A stretch of DNA of 29,800 nucleotides from an uncultured Clostridia bacterium (lineage in GTDB: Bacteria; Bacillota; Clostridia; Oscillospirales; Acutalibacteraceae), in the NCBI GenBank assembly GCA_947168785.1, contig CAMVNL010000001.1, positions 1-29,800 of the forward strand, given 5' to 3'. Positions within the stretch are counted from its first letter, which is position 1, and every line of letters starts with the position of its first letter. Of this stretch, positions 3,084 to 25,094 are shown piece after piece. A model generated the notes under the pieces. It was not told the DNA's origin, did not search any database, and saw nothing but the letters and a program-made list of their open reading frames with translations. The translations under genes and the position numbers were made by a program.

Positions 3084-3144
3084 ACTATTTTGAGTTTTTT
3101 TGTGCATTATTTGTAAACAAACTATTAACATTTCTTTGTCTATA

Positions 3145-3173
3145 TTGCATTTTTTCTCTCTGTTCTATATGAT
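3145..3173 (+). promoter_or_regulatory. Sigma70/SigA-type promoter of the giant surface-protein gene
   Basis: TTGCAT (3145-3150), 17 nt, TATGAT (3168-3173) in an AT-rich region. Implies the ORF-track start at 3100 is too far upstream. Confidence 0.6.
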
Positions 3174-3184
3174 TAAAATGTTGA

Positions 3185-3203
3185 ATTGTCCCATAGGGAC
3201 AAT
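3185..3203. promoter_or_regulatory. Perfect palindrome just downstream of the predicted promoter (candidate operator or 5'UTR hairpin)
   Basis: ATTGTCCC-ATA-GGGACAAT, perfect 8-bp arms. Confidence 0.45.
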
Positions 3204-3252
3204 AGATTTGACCGTTTTTCAACAAATTTATTCAGAAAGGTCAGTGAGCAGA

Positions 3253-6200
3253 TTGAAGAGAACGAAGAGGATCCCCAACAGAAGAAAAGCGTTGTCGCTG
3301 TTTCTCACCATTGTGATGGTTGTCACCATGATCCCCATGGTCACCTTCATGAACAAGGAAGAAAACACCGCCAGCGCGTATTCCAGTTATTCAAAACCGT
3401 ACAGCACGGAGTATTACTATGCCTCCGGCACACAATTTATCTATCAGTTGATCCTTTACTTTTCCTCCAGCAGCAACGGCGATGCCGAAAACTGGTTAAG
3501 AAATAACGGCTGGACGCCTTGGGGGCATAACTTTAACGCCGGCGATGGTCACAAAAGTAAGTACATCCATTCCGGTTACAAAACGACGACCGATCCCACG
3601 GTTGCCATCAAGGGGATTCTGGTGGCCACCGGTCACCCTGACTCCGTCAGTTACGGTGGGGCGACTTATTACAGAGTCGGCGGCGGCTTCACTACCCAGA
3701 CGCCTACCGGCGGCGACGGCAGTGTTGACCTGAACAAGGGCAACGGCGGTGACGATCTGTACCTGATGGCCACGGCCGACCGCGCGGCCGGCCCTGCTCT
3801 GACCTCTCTCAGCATGGGGCAGAGCGGCAATTCCGGTACCGCGCAGAGCAATCTGACGAACAACGGGTATCGTGTTGTCACAAACCAGAGCGGCGGCGCG
3901 CAGGACACCAACGCGGGCGCGGGCGGCGACTACAACTACTGCGGTCAGAAATCCTCCTGCACCACGGTCGATTCCAATACCCTGCGCAGCAAATACGCCG
4001 AGCTACTGGCTAAATATAATCAGATAAGTTATTATAATTATCCCAGCACCACAAAAGCGAATATTGAAAACGCTTTGACTACCGCAAGCAACATTCTTTC
4101 CGACCTGAACGACGGCTATACCACATCCAGCCAGACTACCATCAACAACGCCGCGAATGCCTGCTCCACACAGAGCGGTTATATGACGCCCAAGGCGCCT
4201 GTCATCTCCCGTGCCACCACCGTGCGGGACGGCGTGGCCGGCTATTGGGCCTACGCCTATGTGGATACCAACGGCGGCGCGCCGATCAACCGGGTACAGT
4301 TCCCCACCTGGACGAACCTGAACGGTCAGGACGATATCCAGGCGAACTGGGTGACCAACTCCGCCGCCAGCGGCACTTCGGGCAGCTGGACTGTGAACGG
4401 CAGCACTTATAACTATCGCTACTATGTGGCGGTCAGCAGCCATAATAATGAATATGTTGGTTACAATACCCACATCTATGCCTACAACAACCTTGGCGCA
4501 CAAACGTCAAGCAGCGCCAACTTCGGCAGCTTTACCTACCCTGTGAAGTACAACGGCAACGGCGCCACCGGTGGGTCCACCTCCAATCAGACCGTCAACT
4601 ATGGCGCGCAGACGCAGATCAATAACAATGGTTTCACTCGCGCTTATACGATCAACTATAACGGCAACGGCGGCACCGCGGCCAAAACCAGCGATACGGA
4701 GACCTGGACCTTCAACGGATGGGCCGGTTCCACCACCACGCCCGGCTACCTTATCAACAACGCCGGCGAAAAGAGCGGCACGGGCGGCGCGAACGGCTAC
4801 ACGGATTTCGCCCAGTGGACCATTGCAAACCCGTTCTACGCGGGCGAGGAATACACGCTGGAATTTGACGCCTACGGCACCGGTACGCTGATCAACTATT
4901 TCTACGGCGCGTCCGGATATCTGAATGTTGCGAAGTCTGTCAGCTCCAACGGCAGGACCTCTACCGGCGGGGACGGCAATATTACCGCCACCATGACCGG
5001 CAGCTGGGTCCATTATAAGATCGTGTGGACGCTGGGCTCTTCCGGCAACGGTTCAGTCAACAAGTACGTGCTGTTCCGCGCACAACAGGGCACAAGCAAC
5101 GTGATCCACGCCAAGAATATCAAATTCTATCAGAGCAAGTTCGTCAACAATTCCCGGATGCTTAACCTTTCCACCAGCGGCGATTACAACATGACGGCGC
5201 AGTGGACGGCAGGCAAAGAGACCATGCCCAACGCTACCCGCAGCGGCTGGACCTTCCTCGGCTGGAACACGTCGAACAGCGCCACCACTTCAGCTTATAA
5301 TTATAATACCACCCAGACCTTCAGCGCCAACAAGATGCTGTACGCCATCTGGAGCAGGTCCATCACCAACACCTATCACTGGTACAAGGCGGACTGTGCC
5401 ACCGACGCCACCAAGACGTCCAGCGGTACTGCATACAACGCTGCCACCACGCTGGCGCTGACCTCGCCCAAGACCACGGACGTGGTGACCGGTCTCTCCA
5501 AGAACGACAAGACCTGGACCCTGAAGGGCTGGGCGGAGCAGAGCGCCGCTACCTGGGGCGGCCAGAGCGAGACGGCGGCCGTCGGCTTTAACGCCTCCCA
5601 CAACGTGGCTACCACTTCCTCCGCGCATACCTTCATGCCCGTCTACTCCCACGATACCACCAAGTTCTACGCCAACTTCAACTACTACGTAGACGACGCT
5701 ACGGCTTACAGCAAGAAGACGATGGATAAGACCGTGGGAGGCGACGCAACCACCGGCGCGATGCCCATAGCGGCCGTTACCGCAGATGGCGCGAATAACT
5801 CCATCAAGCGCACATATTCCAACGACGGCCGTATCTACGAGCTGCAGGGCTGGTCCCAGACGGAGGGCGCCGCAGAGGCTGAGATCGCATACAACGCTTC
5901 CACCGTCACGCTGACGGTGCCCGGCGGCGTCAACCACGTGCCGCAGGCGTCCGATACGCCCAACATGACGCCTATTGAGCTGTACCCTGTGTATAAGCAT
6001 ATCGGCACCACGATCTACGCGCGCTTTAACTACTACGACGCGTCCGGCAATCTGCAGCAAAAGACCGTGTCCGGTTCCGCTGCCGGTACCAACACCACCG
6101 GAACCGTGACCTTCCCGGATGCTTCACTGGTCAACACAACTTACACGGCTGACGGCGTCACCTACACGCTGGTGGGATGGAGCGCCGCTAACGACAGCGA

Positions 6201-9200
6201 AGCCTGCAATTCGTTTAACTATGAGGTGACGCTGGATGTGCTGCCTCACCCTGCAACCGATTACTATACCTTCTATCCGGTGTATAAGTGCACCACTACG
6301 GCCAGGTATTACACCTATACCTCCGCCGGCGCTCTGACGTCCTCCACCCAGGCCACTGCACTGCTGAAGACAGATACCTTTACCCCCGCTACGGCAGATG
6401 TGGCAGTGCCGCAGACAGGCTTCAACAAGACCATCACGCTGGACGGCAGAACCTTTACCTTCTGCGGCTGGCGGACGGATACGACCACCAACGCCGACGC
6501 GACGGTGGCGACGACGGTGACCGCGCAGAGCCACGCCGTCAGAGACGCGGAATACGTCTATTACGCAATTTACAAAAATGACGCCCTGACGCTAAGCTAT
6601 GACGCGGCCCACGACGGCGTTACGGCGACGCCCGTGCCCGCTTCTCAGACCGGCGTCCAGTATATCAGCACCGCCACCGGCAACGCCGATATCAACAACG
6701 TGGCGGAGGTGACCTTTGACGTCAATCCGGATAATGTGATCCCCGCCAAGGAGGGTTACACCTTCATCGGCTGGGGCAACGTGGATTCCGAGGAGGAGAC
6801 CTTCGACTACGCCCCCACCGGCGCCACCCTGCAGACCCGCATCGACAAGTCTCTCTTCGCCCGTTTCCGCGTCAACGACATGAACGTCACCTTCGTGTAC
6901 TATGACGGCGCCGACCTGGAAGGCGATTATAAACACGAAACAAAGACCGTTTCCTACGACGATCTGCAGCGCGACGATTCCGCTTCGAACAGCAGATACG
7001 TGGTCACCGCCCCCACGGTGAAGCTGGTGGGCGCGGACAACGTCATCAACATGACGAATATCGTCCATGCCAACGACAAATATCACTACGTCTTCCAGAA
7101 ATGGGAGCGCTCTGACGGCAAGGGCATCCATACCGCCTCCGTCAACGGCATTGATTACACCGTCACCTACAAAAACGTGGTGGATGACATCACCGTTCAG
7201 GGTATTTACGACGCCTTCCCGCACCACTATGCGACGCTGACGAGCGCCGAGGTACAGGCGCTTCCCGCCAAATTCAATCCCGACGGCGATACCACAGCCG
7301 CCAAGGACGCCACCTGCACCAAGGACGGTTATCAGTACCTGAAATGCACCGACTGCGGCCACGTTTACAAACAGATCATTTCCAAGCTCGATCACAAGAA
7401 TGAAAGCGGCGTGCCCGTGGTCACCTACAGCGGCTACAAAGCGCCCACCTGCACGGCGACCGGTAAGTACGCCACCGCCGTCTGCGCCCTCTGCGGCGAC
7501 CTTGTCAAAACCGAGGACGGCTCCCGCGCAAGATACTACGGCATCGAGGGCAACGCCTACGTGGAAGCGGATTCCGCCGACGGCGTGATCCCGGCCATGG
7601 GCCACAAGTATGAGTTCAGAGAGACGGTCGCCCCCACCTGCACGGAGAAGGGCTATGACCTGTACGTCTGCGCCAACAACGCGACCCATACGGAAAAGCG
7701 CAACGAAGTTGCCGAAACGAATCATACCGAAGTGACCACCCCCGGCACTCCCGCTACCTGCACCGAGCCCGGCAGATCCGACGGCGTCGTCTGCTCCGTC
7801 TGCAACCGTGTGATCGCGGCGTCCTACACGATCCCCGCCACCGGCCACAACATGGTCAAAACCGCGGCGAAGGCGGCGACCTGCACCGAAGACGGCAACG
7901 TTGAGTACTACACCTGTACCAACTGCGGCAAGCTGTTTGCCGATAAGAACGGCGCTGCGGAGCTGACGGCGGAAGCCGCCGTGATCGCCGCCCTGGGCCA
8001 CAATTACGTGGAAACCCCCGCGGAAGAAGCCACCTGCACCAAGGCCGGCCATACGGCAGGCAAGGTCTGCTCCCGCTGCGGCGAGATCGCCCCGGGCAGC
8101 ACGGCCTCCGAAACCCAGCCCGCCCTCGGCCATGACCTGGACGAAGGCACGCATACGGATTCCGACAAGCCCTGCCAGACCCCCGGCTATACCACTTACG
8201 CCTGCCGGCGCGAAGGCTGCGATTACACGGAAGTCGTGAACGACGAACTGGCGCCGCATACTGAAAAGACCCTGCCCGACCAGCCCGCCACCTGCACGGC
8301 CATGGGTAAATCCTCCTATAAGATCTGCGAGGTCTGCGGAAAGACCCTCACCAACTATAAGTGGCTGCCCATGAAGGCCCACACCTACACCGTCGTTCAG
8401 ACGGCTGAAACGCCCGCCACCTGCGAGACCGCCGGCACCTCCGCTGTAATGAAGTGCGCCAACTGCGACGCCGTCGTCGGCGGCGATGAGATCGCGGCCC
8501 TCGGTCACAACTACAGCGCCTGGATCGTCACCGAAGCCACCTGTGAGACTGACGGCGCCAGGACCAAATACTGCAAGCGCTGCGGCGCCACGGTCACCGA
8601 AACCATCCCGGCCTCCGGCCATACCCCGAAGGACGTGGCGGAAGTACCCGCCACCTGCTCCGCGGAAGGCGTTGCCGCCGGTAAGATCTGCGAAATCTGC
8701 GGCGACGTGCTGGAAGGCTGCGAAGCGATCCCGATGCTGCCTCACGCCATGGGCGAGCCCGCCATCGTGAGAGAGCCCACCTGCGCGCAGGAAGGCCTTG
8801 AAATCACCACTTGCGCCAACTGCGACTATCAGGTCATTGAGAAGATCGAAAAGCTTCCTCACACGGAAAAAACCGTGGAAGAGGCCGTGGCCCCCACCTG
8901 CAACACCGCCGGAACCAAGGCGAAGATCGTGTGTGAAGTCTGCGGCGAGCTGATCCAGGCCCCCACCGTCGTGGCAAAGCTGGATCACGTCTGGCAAACC
9001 ATCCCGGCCGTGGCCCCCACCTGCGCCGCAAAGGGCACGACCGCCTATGAGAAGTGCGTCAACTGCGGAATCAACCTGACCGAACCGAGAGACGTGCCCG
9101 CAAAGGGACACGTATGGGGCGAGTGGCAGCTGGTCAAAGCGGCCACCTGCCTGGAGGACGGCTCCAGAGTGCGTTACTGCACCGTAGAAGGCTGCGAAGC

Positions 9201-10044
9201 CGGAAGCGCTGTTGTGGATGCCGACCAGACGAAAACACTTGATAAGCTCGGGCACAATATGACCAGAGTGGCTGCCAAGGCGCCCACCTGCGGCGTTGCC
9301 GGCAACCCCGAATACTACGTCTGCTCCCGCTGCAGCGACGTCTACTACGCCGACGCCGCCGGCCTTGAGAAGTACACGGCGGAGGAGATCGTGATTCCCG
9401 CGCTGACCCACAACTGGAGCGTTCTCTCCGTTACCGAGCCCACCTGCACGGAAGCCGGCTTTACAACGGTCAAATGCGCCAACTGCAACGAAACGAAAAA
9501 GATTGATGAAGTGCCCGCCAACGGCCACCGTGGCGGCACGGCGACCTGTCAGGCCAAAGCCGTCTGCGAGGTCTGCGGCGAATCCTACGGCGAACTCGGC
9601 GAGCATCAGTACGTGACCATGGTCGACGAGGGCGACTGTCAGCGCAACGGCGTTTCCGTCAAGCTCTGCACGGTCTGCGGCGATGGAACGACCACCGAAC
9701 TGCCTCTTGGCACGCACAAGCCGGAATACATCGTTCTTACCGCGCCTACCTGCACTGAAACCGGCACCGCGCAGTGGATCTGCAAGGTCTGCGACGAAGT
9801 GATCGAGCAGGACACGCTGGAAGCCATCGGCCATCACGATGAAAACGGCGACGGAAAATGTGACGCCTGCGGCATGGACCTCAATTCTTCGACCGACGAT
9901 CCCGACAACGGTACAACCACCGGCATCTGCGAGAAGTGCGGCAGAAACCATGTTGGCAAGACCGGCGGCTTCTTCGGCTATGACGGCTTCGTCTGCAAGC
10001 TGATCTCCTTCTTCCGCATGATCAAGAATCTGTTCAGCAAATAA
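3253..10044 (+). CDS. Giant secreted/cell-surface modular protein: signal peptide, MABP-like beta-prism, FIVAR-like, GBS Bsp-like, InlB B-repeat-like modules with a CBM-like insert, and ~20 Cys/His-rich repeats
   Basis: Likely start TTG 3253 (or GTG 3244) after RBS AGAAAGG. Basic N-region, hydrophobic core and ASA cleavage site (~3378). Three (D/F)xNxGxG(G)-type motifs in the N-domain. YNGNG..GW..AQW/AIW B-repeat signatures. Repeated [AP]TC-x3-G-x5/6-CxxC..H units. Domain names are from recognition, not HMM hits. Confidence 0.85.
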   Translation: MKRTKRIPNRRKALSLFLTIVMVVTMIPMVTFMNKEENTASAYSSYSKPYSTEYYYASGTQFIYQLILYFSSSSNGDAENWLRNNGWTPWGHNFNAGDGHKSKYIHSGYKTTTDPTVAIKGILVATGHPDSVSYGGATYYRVGGGFTTQTPTGGDGSVDLNKGNGGDDLYLMATADRAAGPALTSLSMGQSGNSGTAQSNLTNNGYRVVTNQSGGAQDTNAGAGGDYNYCGQKSSCTTVDSNTLRSKYAELLAKYNQISYYNYPSTTKANIENALTTASNILSDLNDGYTTSSQTTINNAANACSTQSGYMTPKAPVISRATTVRDGVAGYWAYAYVDTNGGAPINRVQFPTWTNLNGQDDIQANWVTNSAASGTSGSWTVNGSTYNYRYYVAVSSHNNEYVGYNTHIYAYNNLGAQTSSSANFGSFTYPVKYNGNGATGGSTSNQTVNYGAQTQINNNGFTRAYTINYNGNGGTAAKTSDTETWTFNGWAGSTTTPGYLINNAGEKSGTGGANGYTDFAQWTIANPFYAGEEYTLEFDAYGTGTLINYFYGASGYLNVAKSVSSNGRTSTGGDGNITATMTGSWVHYKIVWTLGSSGNGSVNKYVLFRAQQGTSNVIHAKNIKFYQSKFVNNSRMLNLSTSGDYNMTAQWTAGKETMPNATRSGWTFLGWNTSNSATTSAYNYNTTQTFSANKMLYAIWSRSITNTYHWYKADCATDATKTSSGTAYNAATTLALTSPKTTDVVTGLSKNDKTWTLKGWAEQSAATWGGQSETAAVGFNASHNVATTSSAHTFMPVYSHDTTKFYANFNYYVDDATAYSKKTMDKTVGGDATTGAMPIAAVTADGANNSIKRTYSNDGRIYELQGWSQTEGAAEAEIAYNASTVTLTVPGGVNHVPQASDTPNMTPIELYPVYKHIGTTIYARFNYYDASGNLQQKTVSGSAAGTNTTGTVTFPDASLVNTTYTADGVTYTLVGWSAANDSEACNSFNYEVTLDVLPHPATDYYTFYPVYKCTTTARYYTYTSAGALTSSTQATALLKTDTFTPATADVAVPQTGFNKTITLDGRTFTFCGWRTDTTTNADATVATTVTAQSHAVRDAEYVYYAIYKNDALTLSYDAAHDGVTATPVPASQTGVQYISTATGNADINNVAEVTFDVNPDNVIPAKEGYTFIGWGNVDSEEETFDYAPTGATLQTRIDKSLFARFRVNDMNVTFVYYDGADLEGDYKHETKTVSYDDLQRDDSASNSRYVVTAPTVKLVGADNVINMTNIVHANDKYHYVFQKWERSDGKGIHTASVNGIDYTVTYKNVVDDITVQGIYDAFPHHYATLTSAEVQALPAKFNPDGDTTAAKDATCTKDGYQYLKCTDCGHVYKQIISKLDHKNESGVPVVTYSGYKAPTCTATGKYATAVCALCGDLVKTEDGSRARYYGIEGNAYVEADSADGVIPAMGHKYEFRETVAPTCTEKGYDLYVCANNATHTEKRNEVAETNHTEVTTPGTPATCTEPGRSDGVVCSVCNRVIAASYTIPATGHNMVKTAAKAATCTEDGNVEYYTCTNCGKLFADKNGAAELTAEAAVIAALGHNYVETPAEEATCTKAGHTAGKVCSRCGEIAPGSTASETQPALGHDLDEGTHTDSDKPCQTPGYTTYACRREGCDYTEVVNDELAPHTEKTLPDQPATCTAMGKSSYKICEVCGKTLTNYKWLPMKAHTYTVVQTAETPATCETAGTSAVMKCANCDAVVGGDEIAALGHNYSAWIVTEATCETDGARTKYCKRCGATVTETIPASGHTPKDVAEVPATCSAEGVAAGKICEICGDVLEGCEAIPMLPHAMGEPAIVREPTCAQEGLEITTCANCDYQVIEKIEKLPHTEKTVEEAVAPTCNTAGTKAKIVCEVCGELIQAPTVVAKLDHVWQTIPAVAPTCAAKGTTAYEKCVNCGINLTEPRDVPAKGHVWGEWQLVKAATCLEDGSRVRYCTVEGCEAGSAVVDADQTKTLDKLGHNMTRVAAKAPTCGVAGNPEYYVCSRCSDVYYADAAGLEKYTAEEIVIPALTHNWSVLSVTEPTCTEAGFTTVKCANCNETKKIDEVPANGHRGGTATCQAKAVCEVCGESYGELGEHQYVTMVDEGDCQRNGVSVKLCTVCGDGTTTELPLGTHKPEYIVLTAPTCTETGTAQWICKVCDEVIEQDTLEAIGHHDENGDGKCDACGMDLNSSTDDPDNGTTTGICEKCGRNHVGKTGGFFGYDGFVCKLISFFRMIKNLFSK
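7300..9850 (+). repeat. About 20 degenerate protein-level Cys/His-rich repeats within the surface protein
   Basis: Examples: KDATCTKDGYQYLKCTDCG, KAATCTEDGNVEYYTCTNCG, TEPTCTEAGFTTVKCANCN; most units are followed by ..(L/T)xH. Confidence 0.85.
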
Positions 10045-10226: not shown

Positions 10227-12146
10227 ATGAAAAAAAAGATTTATTTCACACAGGTAGGATTCGACTTTGGCGGTTCCGTGTATCTGCCCTATGCGGCGGG
10301 TACGATGATTTCCTATGCCTTGGCGCAGGAGGATCTTGCGGCGGAATACGAATTTCCGACGATTGTTTTTCGTCGGGAGAAGATCGCGGCGGTGATGGAT
10401 AAAATTGAAAACCCGTATATCGCGGCTTTTTCGTGCAGCGTATGGAATATGGAATTCAACAAAACCATTGCGGCGCGGATCAAGGAACAATACCCAGATT
10501 GCTTAGTGGTTTTTGGCGGTCATTCGATCCGTGAAGACTCCCCAAAGCTGCTGGAGGAAGAGCCGTATGTCGATATCCTGATGTACGGGGAAGGAGAGCA
10601 GACGTTTGTCAATCTGCTGCGTGCCCTGCCCACCGGCGACCTGAGCGGCGTTCCCAATATTGCTTTCCGGCAGGGGGGAACGATCCATCTGACGGAACGG
10701 GCGTATTATTATGATCTTGCGAAGTATCCCTCCCCCTATTGCAGCGGCGTTCTTGACGCAATTGTCGACGCGGAGCCGGAGACGGATTTCCTTGCCGTTC
10801 TGGAAACGACCCGGGGCTGCCCCTATTCCTGCGCCTACTGCGACTGGTGCGCGGGGCACAAAATGCGGTTCTTCCCCATGGAAAAAGTGTTGGATGAGAT
10901 CCGTTGGCTGGCGGAGCACCGGGTGGAATATATCTTCTGCGGCGACTCCAACTTCGGTATGTTCGACCGGGACGTGGAGATCGCCAAAGCGCTGGTGGAA
11001 ACCAAACGGCAATACGGTTATCCCAAGGTTTTCCGCCCCTGTTATGAAAAAAACAGCGCGGACCGGGTGTTTGAAATCTGCCGGATCCTCAACTCCGAGG
11101 GGATGGACAAGGGCGCGACCATGGCCTATCAGACGCTCTCCCCGGAGGCGCTGAAAAATATCGGCAGAAAGAATCTGACGCTGGAGCACTTTTCCGATCT
11201 GGTCCGCCGCTACAATGAGGCGGGCATCCCCTGTTACTCTGAACTGATTCTCGGTCTGCCGGGGGAGACGAAGGAGAGCTTCTGCCGGGGTATCTGCCGT
11301 TTGTTGGAGAGCGGCCAGCACAACTCCCTGAGCGTTTACCACTGCGAGATGCTGCCAAACTCCGACATGTCGGATCCGGACTTTGTGCAAAAACACGGCA
11401 TTGAAGTAATCAAAGTACCGTTTAATCATATTCACAGCGCGATCAATCAGAGTGAAGAGATACAGGAATATTCCTACCTCGTCCGGGCAACCAACACCAT
11501 GAACCGGGACGACTGGGTGGGCGCCAATCTGTTCTCCGTCTGTATTCAGTGTTTCCACAGCCTCGGGCTGCTGCGGTGCTTTTCCATGTATCTGACGGCG
11601 GAGGGAATCGTCAGCTATTACGATTTCTTCCGGGACCTGCTGGAATATATTATGGTTTCGGACGGAAAAATCGGCTCTCTCTGGCGTTCCTTCCGAACAA
11701 AATATGAGAACTCTTTGACCGGCGACTGGAATTATCACCGTGACATTTTCGGGAACGTAACGTGGTTCTTTGAAGAGGGCGCCTTCTTGGAGTGTGTCTG
11801 TGATTTTGACGGTTTCTTTGCAGAGCTTGTTCCGTTTTTGCGCCGGTTTCCCATCAAACAGGATCTGTACGAAGAACTGGAGAGGTATCAGCGTACAATC
11901 GTGCGAAAGCCTCACGACAAAGAAACAACCTCGCAGTTTCGTTATGATTTTTATTCCTATTTTGAGAGGATTACCGACGGAGAAAGCGCGCTGCTGGAGC
12001 GGAAAGACATTGTGGTGACGGTCTGTCCGAATAAGGAATATGACGACGTTGCCGAATATGCCCGGGAAACGGTTTGGTATGGCCGACGTAAAGGCGCAAC
12101 TGTTTACCGGGGAAAGGAATTGTCGGTGCAGGGTTCTGATCTGTAG
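10227..12146 (+). CDS. Cobalamin (B12)-binding domain radical SAM protein, 'CDW' paralog family (639 aa)
   Basis: N-terminal B12-binding Rossmann features (YLPYAAG, FSCSVWN, VFGGH, GEGE), radical SAM motif TRGCPYSCAYCDWC, ELILGLPGET, and C-terminal YARETVWYGRR. Confidence 0.9.
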   Translation: MKKKIYFTQVGFDFGGSVYLPYAAGTMISYALAQEDLAAEYEFPTIVFRREKIAAVMDKIENPYIAAFSCSVWNMEFNKTIAARIKEQYPDCLVVFGGHSIREDSPKLLEEEPYVDILMYGEGEQTFVNLLRALPTGDLSGVPNIAFRQGGTIHLTERAYYYDLAKYPSPYCSGVLDAIVDAEPETDFLAVLETTRGCPYSCAYCDWCAGHKMRFFPMEKVLDEIRWLAEHRVEYIFCGDSNFGMFDRDVEIAKALVETKRQYGYPKVFRPCYEKNSADRVFEICRILNSEGMDKGATMAYQTLSPEALKNIGRKNLTLEHFSDLVRRYNEAGIPCYSELILGLPGETKESFCRGICRLLESGQHNSLSVYHCEMLPNSDMSDPDFVQKHGIEVIKVPFNHIHSAINQSEEIQEYSYLVRATNTMNRDDWVGANLFSVCIQCFHSLGLLRCFSMYLTAEGIVSYYDFFRDLLEYIMVSDGKIGSLWRSFRTKYENSLTGDWNYHRDIFGNVTWFFEEGAFLECVCDFDGFFAELVPFLRRFPIKQDLYEELERYQRTIVRKPHDKETTSQFRYDFYSYFERITDGESALLERKDIVVTVCPNKEYDDVAEYARETVWYGRRKGATVYRGKELSVQGSDL

Positions 12147-13417: not shown

Positions 13418-14980
13418 ATGAAAAAAAACAATTCTCATTCGCAAAGAAAACTGCGCATGCTGGCGGTCAGGAATCTCCTGATCGTGTTTGTTTCTCTGTG
13501 CGCTTTGATGGGCGTTGCGGAATTGGTACTGAATCTGCAGCTTCTTTCCGCGGGAGATGCGGATAACGAAAACGCGGTGCTGATGAGCTATGAAAAAACG
13601 CCGGTGCCCGCCCTGCTGACCACGGAGGAAAACTACGTTTACGCGAAACAGTTTTTCAGCAATCCGGACGATTATGACAGATTTGTGGAGGAAGAAGCCC
13701 CTTCCGCATTGCGCTATCCTTATATTGATAATCTGAAAACCACCGCGGACTATGACGACGATACGATCGATATCCTGGTCCTCGGCGATTCTTTTACCTG
13801 GGGCGAGGCTTCTCTCAACCGCAACGAGCTGTTCTGGCGACAGCTGGAGCGGATGCTGCGCGCGCAGGGATATAACGTGCGGGTCTCTGCGGTCGCGGCG
13901 GAGGGCGCCACCGGCTATGAAGAACTCCATTGGCTGGTGGACGGTGCGGCGGAGGATTTCTCCGCCGACCTGGTGATCTTCGGCTATGTGTTCAACGACG
14001 CCATGCGACCAGGCAACGGCTTCGGCGCGATGCCGCAGCGGCTGGTGATCCCGTCTCTTACCTGGCTGGAAAAGACGCTGCCGCGGTTCGCCCAGAAGGT
14101 TTACGCCTATGTGGACGCCAAAACGCTTTATACCAAAAAATACGGCGACCGTTATAAGGATTCCTATATTTCCGTGCTGGACGACGATCTGACGCCCTAT
14201 TATCGGGAGCATTTTGTGGAGCCGCTGGCGGCGTATTCAAAAGAACGTGATCTGCCCGCTGTGGTGGTGACGCTGCCCAACGAAACCAACAGCCTGCTGC
14301 TGGAAGAGCTTTATCGTCCGCTGGAGGATATTTTCGAAGGTACGGGCATTGGATATTACAACAGCTGCGAAGCGTTCAAAAAACAATACGGATCCAATCA
14401 GCACAAAAAAAATATTACGGTGAACGCCATGAACGTCCATCCCGGCAGCGCCGCGCACCGGTTCTACGCGGAATATATCTGCGACTTTTTGCTGCGGGAT
14501 TACGCGGACGTTCTTGGGCAGCCGAGCGGAACCGATCTCAACAGCCGGATCGTTTCCGTCAACGACCGTATGCCGGGGGATATTGATCTGCGGACCGTTT
14601 CCGAAAGTGAAACCGGATCCGTCTGTACGTTCGTTTACCCCGACGTTGCCGTCCCGCGTTATATGTATGAAGTTGAGATTGCGCCCTATTGCCTGCGCAA
14701 TCCGATCAAAGAGGGCTATATCAAGCTTTCGTTTGAAAATCCCGTCAATCTGTCCGAGGTTCGCATTGAAGGCGAAGCCGGACAGCAGGTCAGCCTGTGG
14801 TATACGACGGTGAATGAAAAGCTTGGTTATGACGACAATACCGTAACGCCGTGGGAGGCGACGCCGGAGGCTCCCTTCGTCTGGCGGTCGGAAAAAGAGG
14901 AACAGGTCACCTCGCTGTGTATCCATGCGGAGCGGCCCGGATTGCTGACGGTCACCGTTACGGGAAAGGTGGAGGCTTGA
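13418..14980 (+). CDS. Membrane-anchored SGNH/GDSL-family protein (hydrolase or acyltransferase)
   Basis: N-terminal TM helix; blocks LGDSFTWG (Ser), IFGYVFNDA, and NVHP (His); extra C-terminal beta-rich domain; directly upstream of the carbamoyltransferase. Confidence 0.8.
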   Translation: MKKNNSHSQRKLRMLAVRNLLIVFVSLCALMGVAELVLNLQLLSAGDADNENAVLMSYEKTPVPALLTTEENYVYAKQFFSNPDDYDRFVEEEAPSALRYPYIDNLKTTADYDDDTIDILVLGDSFTWGEASLNRNELFWRQLERMLRAQGYNVRVSAVAAEGATGYEELHWLVDGAAEDFSADLVIFGYVFNDAMRPGNGFGAMPQRLVIPSLTWLEKTLPRFAQKVYAYVDAKTLYTKKYGDRYKDSYISVLDDDLTPYYREHFVEPLAAYSKERDLPAVVVTLPNETNSLLLEELYRPLEDIFEGTGIGYYNSCEAFKKQYGSNQHKKNITVNAMNVHPGSAAHRFYAEYICDFLLRDYADVLGQPSGTDLNSRIVSVNDRMPGDIDLRTVSESETGSVCTFVYPDVAVPRYMYEVEIAPYCLRNPIKEGYIKLSFENPVNLSEVRIEGEAGQQVSLWYTTVNEKLGYDDNTVTPWEATPEAPFVWRSEKEEQVTSLCIHAERPGLLTVTVTGKVEA

Positions 14981-14983
14981 AGG

Positions 14984-16780
14984 ATGGAACAGTATATTCT
15001 CGGTATTTCCGCCCTTTACCATAACGCCGCCGCCGCGCTGACCTGCGACGGGGAGATTGTTGCTGCCGCAGAGGAGGAGCGGTTTACCCGCAAAAAGGGC
15101 GACGCCTCTTTCCCCATCAACGCGATCAAATTTTGTCTGGACTCCGCCGGCCTGATGCCGGAGGAGCTTTCCGCGGTGGCGTTCTATGAAAACGTCACCA
15201 CCAAATTCGAGCGGATCCAGACCGGTATTTTCCTCAACGTTCCAAAGAGCCTGCCGCAGTTCCTCACCGCCATGCCGGATTGGGTAACCAATAAACTGTG
15301 GATCGAAAACAAAATCCGGAAAGAGCTGGGCTGGCACGGGCCGTTTTATTACGTGCCGCATCACCTGGCGCACGCGGCATCCGCCTATTATCCCTCTCCC
15401 TTTGACGACGCCGCCATCCTCACGGTGGATGGGGTCGGGGAGTGGTCTTCCCTTACATGGGGAACCGGCGAGAGCGGCAATATCGCCATCAGGGAGTCAC
15501 TGGATTATCCGAACTCCCTCGGGCTGCTGTATTCCGCTTTTACGCTGTATACCGGGTTCAAAATCAACAACGGCGAGTATAAGATGATGGGGCTGGCCCC
15601 TTACGGCGAGCCCGTCTATGCAGATCTGATCAAAAAAGAGCTGGTCCGGATCGCGCCGGACGGCAGCTTTCTGTTGAATCAGAACTATTTTTCCTATACC
15701 TACGGATTGAAGACCTTCCGCCCGGAATTTGAAGCGCTGTTCTGCAGAAAGATGCGCGCCAAAACGGAACCCATCGAGTCTTTCCATGCGGACGTGTCCG
15801 CCAGCATCCAGCAGGTGACGAACGAGATCCTGCTGTTGACGGCGCGGCACGTGCGGGAAAAAACCGGCAAACGGCGTCTTGTGATGGCGGGTGGCGTGGC
15901 GCTGAACGTTACCGCCAACGGGTTGTTGCGTCAAAGCCGGATCTTTGACGATATCTGGATCCAGCCGGCCGCCGGAGACGCGGGCGGCGCGGTTGGCGCG
16001 GCGCTTTCCACGTATTATTCCACTGCCAAGGCGGAAAAACAGGCGTCCGCAAAAGACGGGATGAAGGGCTCTCTGCTGGGTTACCGGATCCCGGATACGA
16101 GCAAGGCGGACGACGAAGCGCTCCGGGCGCTTGGTGCCAAATGGACGACCATGTCCCGCAAAGCTTTGCAGGAAAAGGCGGCAAAGCTGCTGGCGGAAGG
16201 AAAGATCGTCGGCGTGGCCTGCGGCAGCGCGGAATTCGGCCCCCGGGCGCTGGGGAACCGCTCCATTCTGGCGGACGCCAGAGACCCCGCCATGCTGCAG
16301 CGGCTGAACAAAAAAATCAAATTCCGCGAGGGCTTCCGGCCGTTCGCCCCCATCGTCCTTGAAGAGGACGCAAAGGATTACTTTGAGATAGAGGGCACAT
16401 CGCCCTATATGCTTTTCACCTTCCCTGTCCGGCCGTCACGCAGGCTGCCCGTGGAGCGGGCGGAGCGGGTGGAGGATACCGCATCGCTGGCCCGTTCGGA
16501 TATCCCGTCGGTGACCCACGTCGATTATTCCGCCCGGATCCAGACGGTGAACGGGGAGGATGATCGTTTTGTGTACGGTGTTTTGCAGGCATTCAAACGG
16601 CTGACCGGTTACGGGATCCTGATCAACACCTCCTTCAATACGAACAACGAGCCCATCGTCAATACGGCTGTGGATGCGTATCGCTGTTTTATGCGCTCGC
16701 AGATCGATTACCTGATTGTTGGCGGCAGATTTTTTGAAAAATCGGCCCAAACGGCCGAGGCGCCGAAGGGAGGCTGGTGA
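14984..16780 (+). CDS. O-carbamoyltransferase, CmcH/NodU/TobZ family
   Basis: ILGISALYH, EEERFTRKK, HHLAHAASA, TVDGVGE, GEYKMMGLAPYG, GGVALN, QPAAGDAG, GPRALGNRS, KFREGFRPFAP, HVDYSARIQTV, NTSFN. Confidence 0.95.
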   Translation: MEQYILGISALYHNAAAALTCDGEIVAAAEEERFTRKKGDASFPINAIKFCLDSAGLMPEELSAVAFYENVTTKFERIQTGIFLNVPKSLPQFLTAMPDWVTNKLWIENKIRKELGWHGPFYYVPHHLAHAASAYYPSPFDDAAILTVDGVGEWSSLTWGTGESGNIAIRESLDYPNSLGLLYSAFTLYTGFKINNGEYKMMGLAPYGEPVYADLIKKELVRIAPDGSFLLNQNYFSYTYGLKTFRPEFEALFCRKMRAKTEPIESFHADVSASIQQVTNEILLLTARHVREKTGKRRLVMAGGVALNVTANGLLRQSRIFDDIWIQPAAGDAGGAVGAALSTYYSTAKAEKQASAKDGMKGSLLGYRIPDTSKADDEALRALGAKWTTMSRKALQEKAAKLLAEGKIVGVACGSAEFGPRALGNRSILADARDPAMLQRLNKKIKFREGFRPFAPIVLEEDAKDYFEIEGTSPYMLFTFPVRPSRRLPVERAERVEDTASLARSDIPSVTHVDYSARIQTVNGEDDRFVYGVLQAFKRLTGYGILINTSFNTNNEPIVNTAVDAYRCFMRSQIDYLIVGGRFFEKSAQTAEAPKGGW

Positions 16781-16784
16781 ATCG

Positions 16785-17405
16785 ATGAAAAAGCAAAAAC
16801 AAAGCTCCTCCGGATTCGCTTCTTTTTCTGAATACTATGACGAGCGGAAGCTGCGAAAGGAGGTCGGAACGACGGGATTGTTCCTGTGCCTGTTCTGTGT
16901 GGTGCTGGCCGCCGTCTTTTTTGTACGGGGATTGGCTGCCGTTGGGGTGCAGGAGGTGTTGTCCTACGCGGCAACTGGCTTCTTTTTGCTGATTCTTGTG
17001 ATCTATCTGCTGTTTCCCGCGTCGTTGTTCCGTTTTTTTTGGAAGCTGCGTCCCGTGACGGATTGCATCGGGAAGTACCTGCTCCGCCTGATTCTTCTTC
17101 CCGTTTATCTGGTATTGTGTCTGTTCAGCCTGCCGTTCGTGGGCCGGCAACGGAAAAAATATCAGTTCGCCTCCTGGAAGGAGCCGGCTGCTTCTGCGGA
17201 CACCTATTATTCCGCAGATACACAGAACGTTTTCCGGAACAGTTCCTCCGGACGGTTCCGGTTCCTGACCTCTCTGCTGGGCGTCATGGCGGAAAAACGG
17301 CAGTTTTTCCTTTTCCCGGTTTTTCTTGTGCTGCTGCTGTTGGGCCTCTTCTTCTATTTTATCTCCTCCAGCAGTATTCTCGGTTTTGTTTATACGCTTT
17401 TCTGA
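16785..17405 (+). CDS. SxtJ-family membrane protein fused to a C-terminal SxtK/DUF5989-like peptide
   Basis: ATG 16785 just after the carbamoyltransferase stop. SxtJ-like 'LRK..G' start and hydrophobic segments. C-terminal ~45 aa (LLGVMAEKRQFFLFPVFLVLLLLG...ILGFVYTLF) matches the recalled DUF5989 pattern ending FIYTLF. Typical carbamoyltransferase-SxtJ-SxtK-SGNH neighbourhood. Confidence 0.72.
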   Translation: MKKQKQSSSGFASFSEYYDERKLRKEVGTTGLFLCLFCVVLAAVFFVRGLAAVGVQEVLSYAATGFFLLILVIYLLFPASLFRFFWKLRPVTDCIGKYLLRLILLPVYLVLCLFSLPFVGRQRKKYQFASWKEPAASADTYYSADTQNVFRNSSSGRFRFLTSLLGVMAEKRQFFLFPVFLVLLLLGLFFYFISSSSILGFVYTLF

Positions 17406-17423: not shown

Positions 17424-18773
17424 ATGCTTTTATCAAAGGAAAACGGATACGCGATCAAGCTGCGCCGGGCGACGGAGAAGATTCCGTCCGGGCTGCGTCG
17501 GCATATCCCGGCGCTTTGTATCTTTTTGTTCCTGCTGTTTTACGGTCTGGTGATCGTACGTCGCTGCGACCCGCCGGAAGTGAGCATCTTTGAATATTAT
17601 TTTTACGCAGTGGATTTCAGCATGGGCTTTGTGGGCCGGTTCCTGATAGGGGCCGTTTTCAATTTGTTCGTCAAAGAACCTACGCCCGCTGCAGCCACGG
17701 TTTATGTGTGCGTGCTGTTGCTGTTGTTTTGCGCGGCGCTTAGTTTTCTGCTGGAACGTTTCTGGCTGGCGCTGCCGGAGAACGGCCGCGGCATCGGGCT
17801 TTGTCTGCTGGCGTTTTACCTGACCGGGCCTGCCGCTTTCAGTATCTATTTCTTTCAGTTTGGCATGCTGGATACCCACTGGCTGTTGTTGGCGCTTCCC
17901 TTTGTGGTGCTGCTTCAGCATAAAAAAACGCAGTGGCTGCTGCCGCTGCTGTTTGTTCCTATGGTGATGATCCAATATGCCTCCCTGTTCAACTGGGTGC
18001 TGTTCGGCGGGTTGCTGATTCTTTATGAACTGACCCTTGCGACGGAAAAGGCGGACCGCCGCCGCTTGATTGCGCTGTTTCTGGCGAGCGTAACGCTGGC
18101 CTCCGGCACCTTTTTTTATTTTGAAATCAACGAAAAAAAGAACGTCGTCTATACTGTGGACGAATTTAACGAGATCCTGACCGAACGCGGTGTGGAGATG
18201 CTCTATTATTTCGACCATATGCTCTACGACGATTTCCTGCACGACACGCCGGCATTGGAAGAGCAATATGCGTACTATAAGGAGATTGATTTTATCGACC
18301 ACTTCCCGAACATGTCGGATAACGTGTTCAAGAGGACGGTCAACGAGCTGTCTTATATGCTCCGTACCCACGTCGGCTATTACCCGCAGAACAACTGGTA
18401 CGGGCTGAAAAAGACGGTGGGGCAGATGCTGCTGCTCACTGTGATCTTATCCCCCATGCTTGTGCTGTTCTATACCGTTTTCCACAGAAAATACAGGGCG
18501 GCCAAGGGGCGTTTCCTGTCGCGGTTCACCTATTTCTGCATGATGGCGCTGTATCCGGTCAGCGCCGTTGCCATCATCCCCATTTCCTCCGATTCGGTGA
18601 GGTGGATCGGACAGGGATTCCTGGTACTGTTCTCTCTGATATTATATATGGTCTATAAAGAAAATGAAGCGGTCCTCGGTATTTTGTCGGAAAAACTCGC
18701 GCACATCCCGCCGCCCGCAGCCGCGCTGTATTACGGTATCTGGTTCTTTACCGTGCTCAACCCATACGTGTGA
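17424..18773 (+). CDS. Polytopic membrane protein, putative GT-C-like transferase (paralog of 20374-21636)
   Basis: Many TM segments. Motifs shared with the paralog: D(F/Y)SMGF..R, FGMLD..W, EFNEIL..RGV, SSD..RW and terminal (N/D)PY. Confidence 0.6.
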   Translation: MLLSKENGYAIKLRRATEKIPSGLRRHIPALCIFLFLLFYGLVIVRRCDPPEVSIFEYYFYAVDFSMGFVGRFLIGAVFNLFVKEPTPAAATVYVCVLLLLFCAALSFLLERFWLALPENGRGIGLCLLAFYLTGPAAFSIYFFQFGMLDTHWLLLALPFVVLLQHKKTQWLLPLLFVPMVMIQYASLFNWVLFGGLLILYELTLATEKADRRRLIALFLASVTLASGTFFYFEINEKKNVVYTVDEFNEILTERGVEMLYYFDHMLYDDFLHDTPALEEQYAYYKEIDFIDHFPNMSDNVFKRTVNELSYMLRTHVGYYPQNNWYGLKKTVGQMLLLTVILSPMLVLFYTVFHRKYRAAKGRFLSRFTYFCMMALYPVSAVAIIPISSDSVRWIGQGFLVLFSLILYMVYKENEAVLGILSEKLAHIPPPAAALYYGIWFFTVLNPYV

Positions 18774-20373: not shown

Positions 20374-21636
20374 TCAGGAATAGGGATCCATTGAAATCAG
20401 CGCGTAGACCAATCCGTAGACGGCAAGCGGCGGAATCCCGATGCGGGAAAAGAGTCGTTTTGCTTTTTGAAAGCCGTCCCGCCAATCAAAATAAAGTACC
20501 GCAAACGTACAGATGAACAGACCAATAACCGCGTGCGCCATCCAGCGGAAGTTATCGGAGGAAAAAAGGAAGCCCGATGCGGAGGTGCCGAAGCACAGCC
20601 AACGCATGACGATAATGACCAGCCGTTTCTCTTTATTGCCCCTTTTCTGGCGAAAATAGGAAATAAGAAGAGAAAACAGCAGCGTGACCACGGGGATCTC
20701 TAATAAAACAAGGAACCACAGTCTGCTGTATTCCTGTGAAAAGGAAATGGCGCCCCAGGCATAATACAGGATCCATTGCACAAACCGGATGATGCCGGTG
20801 GAATCAGGATCTACCGAATATCGCGCGTAATCATGGACCGGCGTGGCAATGCTGCTGTCTGTCATCCGGTACAGGGTGCTGTCCAGATATTCCGGGAAGG
20901 TAACGCCGCGGGACCGCAGAATCTCATTGAACTCCTCCACGGGATACACCGCGTTTTCACTTTCGAATTGGATAAAATAACCGGAAAGCCCCACCGTAAT
21001 CAAGCAGCAGACCGCAAACAAGGCGTAATACTGTCTTTTCTCGGTTTTATCGGTTGCTTTTGCCGCAAAGAACAGCAACAGTACCAGCAGTACCGCGGCA
21101 TAGCAAACCAGCGCAGCGAAATGGATGAAAATCATGCCGATCAAACAGAGCGGCAGCAGCCATCTCAGCCGTTTTTTTGGCAGCAACAGCAAGCCGACCG
21201 CAAAAAAGAGAATCCAATACAGATCCAGCATTCCGAATTCCCGGGTGAGGATGCCGAAGGTAAACGGCCCGGATAAAAAGAAAAACATCAATATGAGACA
21301 GGCCTTTTTCTCTTTGGGCCCTGCCGCGGCGAAAAACCGCTCCATAAAAAAGGCAATTGCTGCCAGCAGAAGCAGAAAGAATACTGTTACATACGCACTG
21401 ACCGGTTTATATTCATAATTCCCTATCAGCGCACCGTATATCGCACCGGGCAGAATGCGGGAACAGAAGCCCATGGAGTAATCCATCACATACAGTGAGT
21501 AGGTGACGGGGTTCACACTCCAATGAGCGCCGTTGTTGATATAGAGCCAATGGTACAAAACCAGGAACAAAAAACAGGCCAATCCGATTTTATGCCGCTT
21601 TAGCCGGCGTAAAACAACATTTCCCGTTGCGTGCAA
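20374..21636 (-). CDS. Polytopic membrane protein, putative GT-C-like transferase (paralog of 17424-18773)
   Basis: TTG start with RBS AAAGGAGGT. Motifs DYSMGFCSR, FGMLDLYW, EEFNEILRSRGV, SSDNFRW, MDPYS. Confidence 0.6.
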   Translation of the reverse strand: MHATGNVVLRRLKRHKIGLACFLFLVLYHWLYINNGAHWSVNPVTYSLYVMDYSMGFCSRILPGAIYGALIGNYEYKPVSAYVTVFFLLLLAAIAFFMERFFAAAGPKEKKACLILMFFFLSGPFTFGILTREFGMLDLYWILFFAVGLLLLPKKRLRWLLPLCLIGMIFIHFAALVCYAAVLLVLLLFFAAKATDKTEKRQYYALFAVCCLITVGLSGYFIQFESENAVYPVEEFNEILRSRGVTFPEYLDSTLYRMTDSSIATPVHDYARYSVDPDSTGIIRFVQWILYYAWGAISFSQEYSRLWFLVLLEIPVVTLLFSLLISYFRQKRGNKEKRLVIIVMRWLCFGTSASGFLFSSDNFRWMAHAVIGLFICTFAVLYFDWRDGFQKAKRLFSRIGIPPLAVYGLVYALISMDPYS

Positions 21637-23591: not shown

Positions 23592-25094
23592 CTATTTCCT
23601 GAATTGAAAATGAAAACCGTATTTTTTGCGGATCCGTGGGAAAAACAAGGCGTTGGAAACGGTGATAACGGTGAATTTAGCGGAATAAAATACCCCACGC
23701 AGCCATTGGTTGAACTGCATGGTGCGGATATTCATCAGAATCGTCTTTAATGATTCAAGCGCAAAACTGGAACTTTTTTCTTTTTTCGTGCCCGGATTGC
23801 GGGAAAACAGATCCTGGAACAAAAAACAGGAACGGATTACGCGGTAATCCCGGTCCGGCACCTCGCTGAAGGAAGAGTAGATTTTTTCGATCAGCGCGCC
23901 ATCGCGCAGCGCTTCCAGCGTCTTCGGCGGATCGTAAAGTCCCTCGCGTACCACCTGATCGTACAGCACGCTTTTTTCAAACGGAGCAAAATAATGAATG
24001 CTCAAAAGGTTGGTCGGGAGCGACTGGATATACTGCACGGTATCTCTCAGATCCTGCTCTGTCTCATGCGGAAAGTTGAAAATGAAGGAGATATTGTAAA
24101 TCATGCCGACGTCGCGGCAATTCTGAAGCGTCGGCGCGACCAGATCATAGGGCAAATGCTTGTTCGCGATTTTCGCGAGATGCCCGGGCGGCGCCTCAAT
24201 GCCGAAGAAGACCCAGCGGCAGCCGTTATCGTACATCTCTTGGATGTCCTCTTTTTTCAGCACGCCGATGCGCGTCTGGCAGCCCCAGATGAAGGAGAGA
24301 TTCCGTTCCCTCATCTGCCTGTAAAAATCCTCTCGTTCGGATTTTGTTACGCCCCAAAGCTCATCCGCGAAATAGACCGTTTCCAGCCCGTGGTTTTTGA
24401 CCAGGTATTCCACCTCGTCCAAAAAGTCGGCTACTGGCCGTACGCGCCGTTTGCATTTGTGAAAATAGGGGTTGAAGCAGAAAGCGCAGTTGCCCGTACA
24501 CCCTTTGGACAGATACAGATACGCCATGTTCTCATAGCAGTAACAGGGCTGAAAATACGCTTTTATATCGGGCAGCAACGTAAAATCCGTCGGGCCCAAC
24601 AGCGAAAGATCCATAAAAGGCTCTTCCGGCGTCAGAACGATGTCTCCGTTTTCCGCGCGGTAAGCGATACCGTTGACCTGACGCGGGTCTTCGCCGTTTT
24701 CCATCGCGTTCATCAGATTCAGCCAGACCTGCTCCCCCTCGCCGATGGTGATGTAGTCTGCTTTCCCTTCTCCTAATATGATTTCCGGAACGGTAGAGGC
24801 GTACGTGCCTCCCACGATAACGGGGATGTTCTTTGTCCGGAAATAATCGCCGATAACGATCATGTCGGGGATCGTCATGTTGGAGATCAGTGAAATTCCT
24901 ATCACGTCCGGATGGTAGCGTTCATATACGGAATCCAGCGGTTCAGAATAAAGAATGCGGTCAACGATTGACACCTGATGTCCGTGCCGGTTCAGATAGG
25001 TCGCAATGGAGAGCTGCCCCAGAGGAAATCCGCTCATCCTTTGATAGGACAGGGATTTCGGATCGTAATTCGGATGAAACAATAAGGCTCTCAT
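23592..25094 (-). CDS. Cobalamin-dependent radical SAM protein (class B methyltransferase-like, distinct from the CDW paralogs)
   Basis: PLGQLSIATYL, VGGTYAS, GEGE, SKGCTGNCAFCFNP, YFADELW, VFFGIEA; 500 aa. Confidence 0.9.
   Translation of the reverse strand: MRALLFHPNYDPKSLSYQRMSGFPLGQLSIATYLNRHGHQVSIVDRILYSEPLDSVYERYHPDVIGISLISNMTIPDMIVIGDYFRTKNIPVIVGGTYASTVPEIILGEGKADYITIGEGEQVWLNLMNAMENGEDPRQVNGIAYRAENGDIVLTPEEPFMDLSLLGPTDFTLLPDIKAYFQPCYCYENMAYLYLSKGCTGNCAFCFNPYFHKCKRRVRPVADFLDEVEYLVKNHGLETVYFADELWGVTKSEREDFYRQMRERNLSFIWGCQTRIGVLKKEDIQEMYDNGCRWVFFGIEAPPGHLAKIANKHLPYDLVAPTLQNCRDVGMIYNISFIFNFPHETEQDLRDTVQYIQSLPTNLLSIHYFAPFEKSVLYDQVVREGLYDPPKTLEALRDGALIEKIYSSFSEVPDRDYRVIRSCFLFQDLFSRNPGTKKEKSSSFALESLKTILMNIRTMQFNQWLRGVFYSAKFTVITVSNALFFPRIRKKYGFHFQFRK

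Follow-up and report, generated by a model that had tools for sequence, protein, structure and literature searches.

Can a carbamoyl group be handed to the cell surface through the C-terminal tyrosine of a membrane protein, in the manner of known acyl shuttles, at a locus that has no membrane-bound O-acyltransferase (MBOAT)? The question is raised by three co-directional genes on the + strand of a 29,800-nt stretch of DNA from an uncultured Clostridia bacterium (contig CAMVNL010000001.1, positions 1 to 29,800; hereafter the window). The first encodes a membrane-anchored, outward-facing SGNH/GDSL enzyme (520 aa; 13418..14980), the second a cytoplasmic TobZ/NodU/GdmN-type O-carbamoyltransferase dependent on ATP and carbamoyl phosphate (598 aa; 14984..16780) and the third a fusion membrane protein in which an SxtJ-like body is joined to a DUF5989 (SxtK-like) unit (206 aa plus stop, four hydrophobic segments; 16785..17405). 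The genes are separated by gaps of 3 and 4 nt and, judged from strand and spacing, form a tight operon. We propose that this cassette probably carbamoylates a cell-surface sugar polymer. The best single explanation of our findings is an MBOAT-free relay that would lead from the carbamoyltransferase to the C-terminal tyrosine of SxtJ/DUF5989, from there to the anchored SGNH protein and finally to the surface polymer; we regard it as plausible and place it a little below an even chance.

An earlier note on this DNA, made from the letters alone, had described the order of anchored SGNH protein, carbamoyltransferase and small membrane protein, and the coordinates and domain matches bear this out. 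It had called the third product an SxtK-like small membrane protein: the SxtK-like tail stands, while 'small' has to give way to a 206-aa fusion.

Conservation and specificity of the terminal tyrosine

The DUF5989 unit of the fusion (PF19451; 17259..17402) consists of an amphipathic helix, a single transmembrane (TM) helix and a 12-residue uncharged tail. The last seven residues of the protein are GFVYTLF; within the terminal hexapeptide F-V-Y-T-L-F (17385..17402), Tyr203 is encoded at 17391-17393, and the TGA stop codon follows directly at 17403-17405. Reading the codons directly thus agrees with the earlier placement of F-V-Y-T-L-F-stop after a TM helix at 17385-17405. Across the DUF5989 family the pattern at the stop codon is xF[IV]Y[TS][LI]F, and all seven DUF5989 units found in this phylum (7/7) end F[VI]YTLF. 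A profile search against 1.84 billion representatives returned 2,604 clusters matching DUF5989, of which the best 150 all carry F[IV]Y[TSP][LIVM][FI].

Because the DUF5989 profile itself contains the motif, a second, independent sample was drawn for the tyrosine. Loci were found through SxtJ (PF19588) in two other phyla and examined with the DUF5989 profile minus its last 8 residues; a DUF5989 gene lay within 1.5 kb at 41 of the 60 loci, and every one of the 41 ended PF[IL]Y[TAS][LI][FY]-stop. The terminal tyrosine had been expected to be invariant among DUF5989/SxtK homologues, and in this motif-independent sample it is. A contig scan seeded with the motif itself was used for gene context only and not for tyrosine conservation, and a word-indexed homologue search with the 51-aa tail alone returned no candidates. 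Among the best 150 representatives, 12 extend past the motif. The three that were looked up all came from single contigs, two with coverage of 0.46x and 1.2x and the third a second copy beside a normal 49-aa gene; the extensions are probably assembly or gene-calling errors. Locus L193 (L193:80-1713) has the order SxtJ, DUF5989 (49 aa), GDSL_2 protein (352 aa) and another DUF5989 copy, which runs on for 21 residues past the motif.

The motif is also rare in the genome that carries the window. Three of its 8,918 six-frame open reading frames (ORFs) of at least 45 aa end F.Y..F, against 0.31 expected from position-specific composition, and these are the fusion and both MBOAT proteins of the genome (C75:1388-2803(-) and C154:1530-2975(-)), which end NPFLYFRF and NPFIYFRF. 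With these tails the canonical DUF5989 tail, APFIYTLF, shares P-F-[IL]-Y. On DltX and on the C-termini of bacterial MBOAT proteins, the tyrosine of FXYXXF is acylated and the serine of an SGNH partner takes the group (PMC12148441); in every characterised system the motif is a covalent acyl-tyrosine carrier to the SGNH serine (PMC12148441, PMC13653941), and the DltX tail binds a pocket of DltD (PMC13653941). The earlier note had given this DltX/PatA motif correctly, and the DltX proteins that we fetched end FIYNEF. In the papers searched, we found no mention of DUF5989 and none of SxtK in connection with a shuttle motif.

Linkage of the SGNH protein, the carbamoyltransferase and the fusion

A single N-terminal helix anchors the SGNH protein, whose Ser/His centre has been kept. 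Its basic N-terminus (MKKNNSHSQRKLR) is followed by a single hydrophobic helix (residues 20-38; 13475..13531), and the AlphaFold2 (AF2) model (predicted local distance difference test score, pLDDT, 92.5) comprises a TM helix (6-43), a helical stalk, an SGNH core (117-366) and a C-terminal beta-sandwich (381-516). Of the blocks that mark the superfamily, I (GDS), II (G), III (GxND) and V (H) are invariant. As the earlier note had read from the GDS and HP signatures, the catalytic residues are intact: Ser125 (G-D-S, block I; 13790..13792), the presumed nucleophile, and His341 (H-P-G, block V; 14438..14440), the presumed general base, are invariant in 51/51 homologues, and Gly163 and Asn193/Asp194 are kept too. 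Residue 339, two before the catalytic histidine, is D in 27 homologues and N in 23, with N in the window protein. Pfam scores lie under their cutoffs (23.3 vs 32.9; 20.5 vs 23.6), and solved folds of the flavodoxin-like SGNH type resemble the model at Z 14-17. The nearest of them, at Z 16.9, belongs to the crocagin-cluster protein CgnD (8a2n); generic esterases come next (Z 14-15). CgnD has been described as a very slow 'protease' whose serine is not labelled by PMSF (phenylmethylsulfonyl fluoride), and its cluster also encodes a carbamoyltransferase, CgnI (PMC10070186); from the likeness of fold and the presence of CgnI in the same cluster, the pairing of SGNH protein and carbamoyltransferase may reach into the crocagin pathway. 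A special closeness of the SGNH domain to PatB, DltD or AlgX was considered and rejected, none of the three being among its best 50 folds (Foldseek, VIA-align). For the C-terminal domain, a weak hint points to discoidin/CBM32 domains (score 0.87).

The carbamoyltransferase is intact and cytoplasmic. It matches Carbam_trans_N at E 3e-78 and Carbam_trans_C at 4e-66, its 598-aa sequence has no hydrophobic segment, and it aligns end to end with GdmN (7vyj, E 2e-91, the best match), NovN and TobZ. The catalytic motifs are kept by comparison with GdmN (HxxxH, D, GDAG, GPRALGNRS, RPFAP and NTSFN), as are the YrdC-like motifs. A carbamoyltransferase gene is present at 77 of 80 loci, and carbamoyltransferase, SxtJ and DUF5989 are the constant core across loci.

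The SGNH gene belongs to the cassette in Clostridia, as the earlier note had supposed. The order SGNH, carbamoyltransferase, fusion was kept in 10/10 Clostridia loci with unrelated flanks; these comprise the window, five relatives from the same genus and four distant SGNH homologues (32-38% identity), the surroundings of the last four including a polysaccharide locus, sporulation and dap genes and mobile-looking DNA. The cassette loci L165-L168 and L093-L097 lie in unrelated neighbourhoods. Within the genus the cassette occurs in just 6 of 37 genomes, and it is rare in the phylum; the unrelated neighbourhoods and the patchy presence together suggest that it moves as a unit. In other phyla, 43 of 77 DUF5989 loci have an N-terminally anchored SGNH-like gene within 8 kb, 30 of them within 3 kb, so that anchored SGNH-like genes number 47 hits per Mb near DUF5989 against 0.65 per Mb in five whole genomes, an enrichment of about 70-fold. 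No MBOAT gene was found in the window cassette or in the related cassettes (the two of this genome lie on other contigs), nor adjoining DUF5989 in five genomes, one of which has no MBOAT at all; the earlier description of the system as MBOAT-free holds in this respect. The module had also been called widespread and unexplained, and both words apply. Beyond the 2,604 DUF5989 clusters, SxtJ occurred in 50 of the 251 genomes sampled from Bacteroidota (the phylum of locus L051, Dyadobacter) and in 48 of the 301 from Pseudomonadota (the phylum of locus L073, Bradyrhizobium), and neither SxtJ nor SxtK has a characterised function (PMC2885083, PMC10157211, PMC12300590).

Complex prediction supports binding of the SGNH protein and the fusion through their membrane helices. 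Predictions of the pair scored 0.67, 0.67 and 0.63, and the best control scored 0.00; the scores are read against a benchmark mark that was reached by 58/80 solved complexes and 2/110 mismatched pairs and is rough, since custom alignments were used. The confident contacts join SGNH residues 8-27 (the anchor) and 211-241 to fusion residues 20-53 and 71-79 (SxtJ TM1, the loop between TM1 and TM2, and the end of TM2). Three conserved SGNH residues all fall within this predicted surface: the polar Asn19, which adjoins the TM anchor (46/51 homologues), and Pro222 (51/51) and Tyr238 (48/51), which sit in a helical insertion.

Topology of the fusion and likeness to known systems

The ORF of the third gene is open from 16716. 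We took the ATG at 16785 as the real start because of the GGGAGG before it and the 206-aa length of 19 homologues. DUF5989 scored 33.0 bits in the 229-aa ORF, 38.3 with the tail alone and 36.8 in the genome search (cutoff 27). The first ~125 residues (16785..17159), whose basic N-terminus leads into TM1 and TM2 and, past a basic loop, a third hydrophobic helix, resemble SxtJ in a profile comparison of 22 fusions with 61 SxtJ proteins (hhalign 90.5%, E 1.4e-6, 79 columns); Pfam SxtJ (PF19588) gave no match to the window protein at E <= 0.01. The charge pattern and the order of hydrophobic segments are the same as in SxtJ, and the body adjoins carbamoyltransferase and DUF5989 as SxtJ does. It is followed by a basic, poorly ordered linker (residues 126-158; 17160..17258). 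Longer 'fusions' of 140-165 aa, together with P0053 and P0096, were rejected as spurious upstream ORF extensions. The AF2 model of the fusion has a pLDDT of 72 (50-58 in the linker), with no PDB match at E <= 0.001 and, in the AlphaFold database (AFDB), a single match to an unnamed 202-aa protein that is probably another fusion. The idea that SxtJ::DUF5989 is a cryptic MBOAT fragment was rejected, the model having no MBOAT-like or other structural relative in PDB/AFDB.

The orientation of the tail was read from the distribution of charges. Among the 22 fusions, the mean number of lysine plus arginine residues was 8.3 in the N-terminus, 0.4 in the loop between TM1 and TM2, 4.0 in the next loop, 8.8 in the linker (120-174) and 0 in the tail; in stand-alone DUF5989 proteins it was 4.3 before the helix and 0 in the tail. 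Stand-alone SxtJ has three hydrophobic segments, with basic regions flanking the third on both sides. Since SxtJ is fused to DUF5989, the C-terminus of the one and the N-terminus of the other must share one side of the membrane. The simplest reading of these patterns is an N-terminus inside, TM1 outwards, TM2 inwards, a third segment, with a central proline, that probably does not span the membrane, a linker inside, the last helix outwards and a tail outside, which is where the earlier note had expected it. At L162:40-540, on a contig of 1.6x coverage, the C-terminus of a carbamoyltransferase reads into a DUF5989 unit and SxtJ follows next; a fusion that occurs in nature or the loss of a stop codon may account for it. 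Such a read-through, on its low-coverage contig, would put the DUF5989 N-terminus inside, as in the topology just given.

In design the DUF5989 unit is close to DltX. Each is ~48 residues long and opens with a stretch that is basic or amphipathic; a single TM helix follows, then ~10 spacer residues, small or polar, and F-[IV]-Y-x-x-F closes the chain. DltD and the window SGNH protein are both outward-facing and anchored by one N-terminal helix, and the contact between TM helices that is predicted here with the SGNH anchor has been modelled for DltD and DltX (PMC13653941). Unlike Dlt, the window cassette has neither an MBOAT nor a carrier protein, its donor enzyme is an ATP-dependent carbamoyltransferase, the group transferred would be carbamoyl rather than D-alanyl, and SxtJ either shares a chain with the DUF5989 unit or accompanies it. 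We make no claim of membership in the DltX family, because there is no cross-match in Pfam or PDB and the profile-profile comparison reached 26%: the likeness is one of design. With the MBOAT-SGNH systems of O-acetylation (PatA/PatB, AlgI/AlgJ/AlgX) the cassette has in common a motif on a larger membrane protein after the last TM helix and an extracytoplasmic SGNH partner, and both AlgX and the window SGNH protein have an extra beta-sandwich, for which a carbohydrate-binding role is here just a lead. The membrane body of the fusion, in contrast, consists of four hydrophobic segments without an MBOAT fold or catalytic histidine, and the donor is not acyl-CoA. The cassette would work like a tyrosine-shuttle/SGNH system, yet it falls outside the Dlt and MBOAT-SGNH families. 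Of the earlier analogy to MBOAT-SGNH systems, the motif, the predicted outside tail and the SGNH linkage have stood.

By family, the cassette is a fused three-gene form of the sxtI-sxtJ-sxtK-sxtL module, known from saxitoxin and also from the suomilide cluster, which is built of the same four families (carbamoyltransferase, SxtJ, SxtK (DUF5989) and GDSL/SGNH). It differs from the sxt segment in that SxtJ and SxtK are one polypeptide, in the SGNH protein, which at 520 aa has both a TM anchor and an additional domain at its C-terminus, in the autonomy of the Clostridia cassette, which lies away from toxin pathways and often among housekeeping genes, and in the presumed acceptor, an envelope polymer and not an alkaloid. 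The carbamoyltransferase is the same two-domain enzyme (YrdC-like plus Kae1-like) as TobZ, GdmN, NovN and NodU, and has retained their catalytic motifs. Soluble acceptors are modified by those four without a partner, whereas the window type is invariably accompanied by SxtJ and DUF5989.

The relay, its rivals and the setting of the locus

In the proposed relay, the carbamoyltransferase would dock on the basic cytoplasmic parts of SxtJ::DUF5989 and make carbamoyl-AMP, and Tyr203, at the membrane's outer face, would end up carrying the carbamoyl group as an O-carbamoyl ester. Helix-helix contacts would keep the SGNH protein beside the fusion, where it would accept the group at Ser125 and transfer it to a glycan of the wall or surface, on either a hydroxyl or an amino function; the C-terminal beta-sandwich of the SGNH protein may bind this glycan. 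The tyrosine 'acyl shuttle' logic would be that of DltB/DltX/DltD and PatA/PatB, with the carbamoyltransferase plus SxtJ replacing the MBOAT.

Several findings weigh against this relay. Its weakest step is the passage of the carbamoyl group through the membrane: the active site of the carbamoyltransferase is cytoplasmic, the tyrosine is predicted to lie outside, there is no MBOAT-like tunnel, and SxtJ has no invariant histidine comparable to that of MBOAT proteins. The topology rests on the positive-inside rule and needs a third SxtJ helix that does not span the membrane, and AF2 draws this segment as one long helix; were it to span, the tail would be cytoplasmic and the relay would fail. Carbamoyl-serine enzymes usually turn over very slowly. 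The earlier suggestion of a complex between SGNH protein and tail holds for the binding of SGNH protein and fusion only, the complex model not confidently placing the tail (201-206) in the SGNH pocket, and the controls, natural proteins unrelated to the pair, may not have been membrane proteins and may fail to test non-specific packing of helices. Between DUF5989 and DltX (PF12459) there was no cross-match in Pfam at E <= 10 and none in PDB, and hhalign gave 26% locally (E 7e-4) and 1.7% globally, with a DltX alignment that contained one wrongly chosen row (L181). The SGNH fold is closest to CgnD and generic esterases, with PatB, DltD and AlgX outside the best 50. Of the 77 DUF5989 loci in other phyla, 34 have no SGNH-like gene in the flank examined; among five genomes of this kind, three have a full-length family member elsewhere and two hold only generic SGNH-core matches. 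A universal SGNH partner of DUF5989 was rejected on the strength of these two. In saxitoxin clusters, moreover, the same proteins accompany the carbamoylation of a small soluble molecule (PMC2885083).

The main rival, which we consider possible though unlikely, is that SxtJ::DUF5989 does no more than tether the carbamoyltransferase to the inner side of the membrane. The acceptor, a glycan that is nascent or linked to a lipid or, in toxin clusters, a small molecule, would then be carbamoylated there before its export, the tail would be a packing or interfacial element, and the SGNH protein would act separately outside, for example as a de-O-acetylase or decarbamoylase editing the polymer. The cytoplasmic and complete carbamoyltransferase, so like its soluble, partner-free relatives TobZ, GdmN and NovN, fits such a tether, as does the fusion model, in which there is no membrane conduit. 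The constancy of the core (carbamoyltransferase at 77/80 loci) and the absence of SGNH from many flanks and from 2/5 genomes tested point the same way; the SGNH fold is nearest to hydrolases, and SxtL was proposed as a decarbamoylase (PMC2885083). A tether leaves unexplained, however, why an invariant tyrosine stands exactly fourth from the end of an uncharged outside tail, and why that tail matches the catalytic motif of MBOAT proteins and DltX, down to P-F-I-Y. Nor does it account for the ~70-fold excess of anchored SGNH genes, for a three-gene cassette that stays fixed although its flanks are unrelated, or for the supported contact between SGNH protein and SxtJ.

That contact is also compatible with a reading that we hold to be improbable, in which the three proteins form a membrane complex and the F-x-Y-x-x-F tail, bound at or within the SGNH pocket, serves to gate, position or regulate and never itself carries the carbamoyl group, which would leave the cell on a substrate such as a flipped lipid-linked sugar. 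Binding is supported by the complex prediction, non-covalent contacts of micromolar affinity join the DltX tail to both DltD and DltE (PMC13653941), and no route for loading the tyrosine is known; yet the same motif is a covalent carrier wherever it has been characterised (PMC12148441), and stand-alone cassettes in housekeeping flanks have no flippase or GT-C gene. Chance resemblance of the tail to the acyl-shuttle motif, with the SGNH gene a mere frequent neighbour in glycan loci, is very improbable: the motif has just three fixed residues, no homology to DltX emerged from the searches and, estimated from the frequencies in this genome, one or two of ~25,000 protein families could end so by chance, but within the genome the motif is exclusive to the MBOAT proteins and the fusion, the SGNH linkage holds in housekeeping flanks as well as in glycan loci, and the complex prediction passes its controls.

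If the relay is correct, it would be the first tyrosine shuttle for carbamoyl and would give SxtJ and SxtK a function in thousands of genomes; both have lacked one since the saxitoxin cluster was described (PMC2885083), and the relay is a testable job for the two. It would also mean that the tyrosine-shuttle principle is not tied to MBOAT/AT3 proteins or to acyl groups, and that extracytoplasmic carbamoylation of wall or surface glycans is a widespread, overlooked modification of the envelope. The window holds the most compact form for testing, with three genes and SxtJ and SxtK already fused.

Beyond the cassette, the window encodes two membrane proteins without a Pfam or NCBIfam match, of 449 aa (17424-18773, +; about ten hydrophobic segments) and 420 aa (20374-21636, -). 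We place both outside the conserved cassette because relatives have other flanks. Around the cassette lie genes for B12-binding radical SAM proteins (10227-12146, 23592-25094 and 25140-29000), one of which is a 1,286-aa double module, and likewise a DegT aminotransferase and a GT2 glycosyltransferase; farther upstream, 3100-10044 encodes a 2,314-aa protein with a Listeria-Bacteroides repeat.

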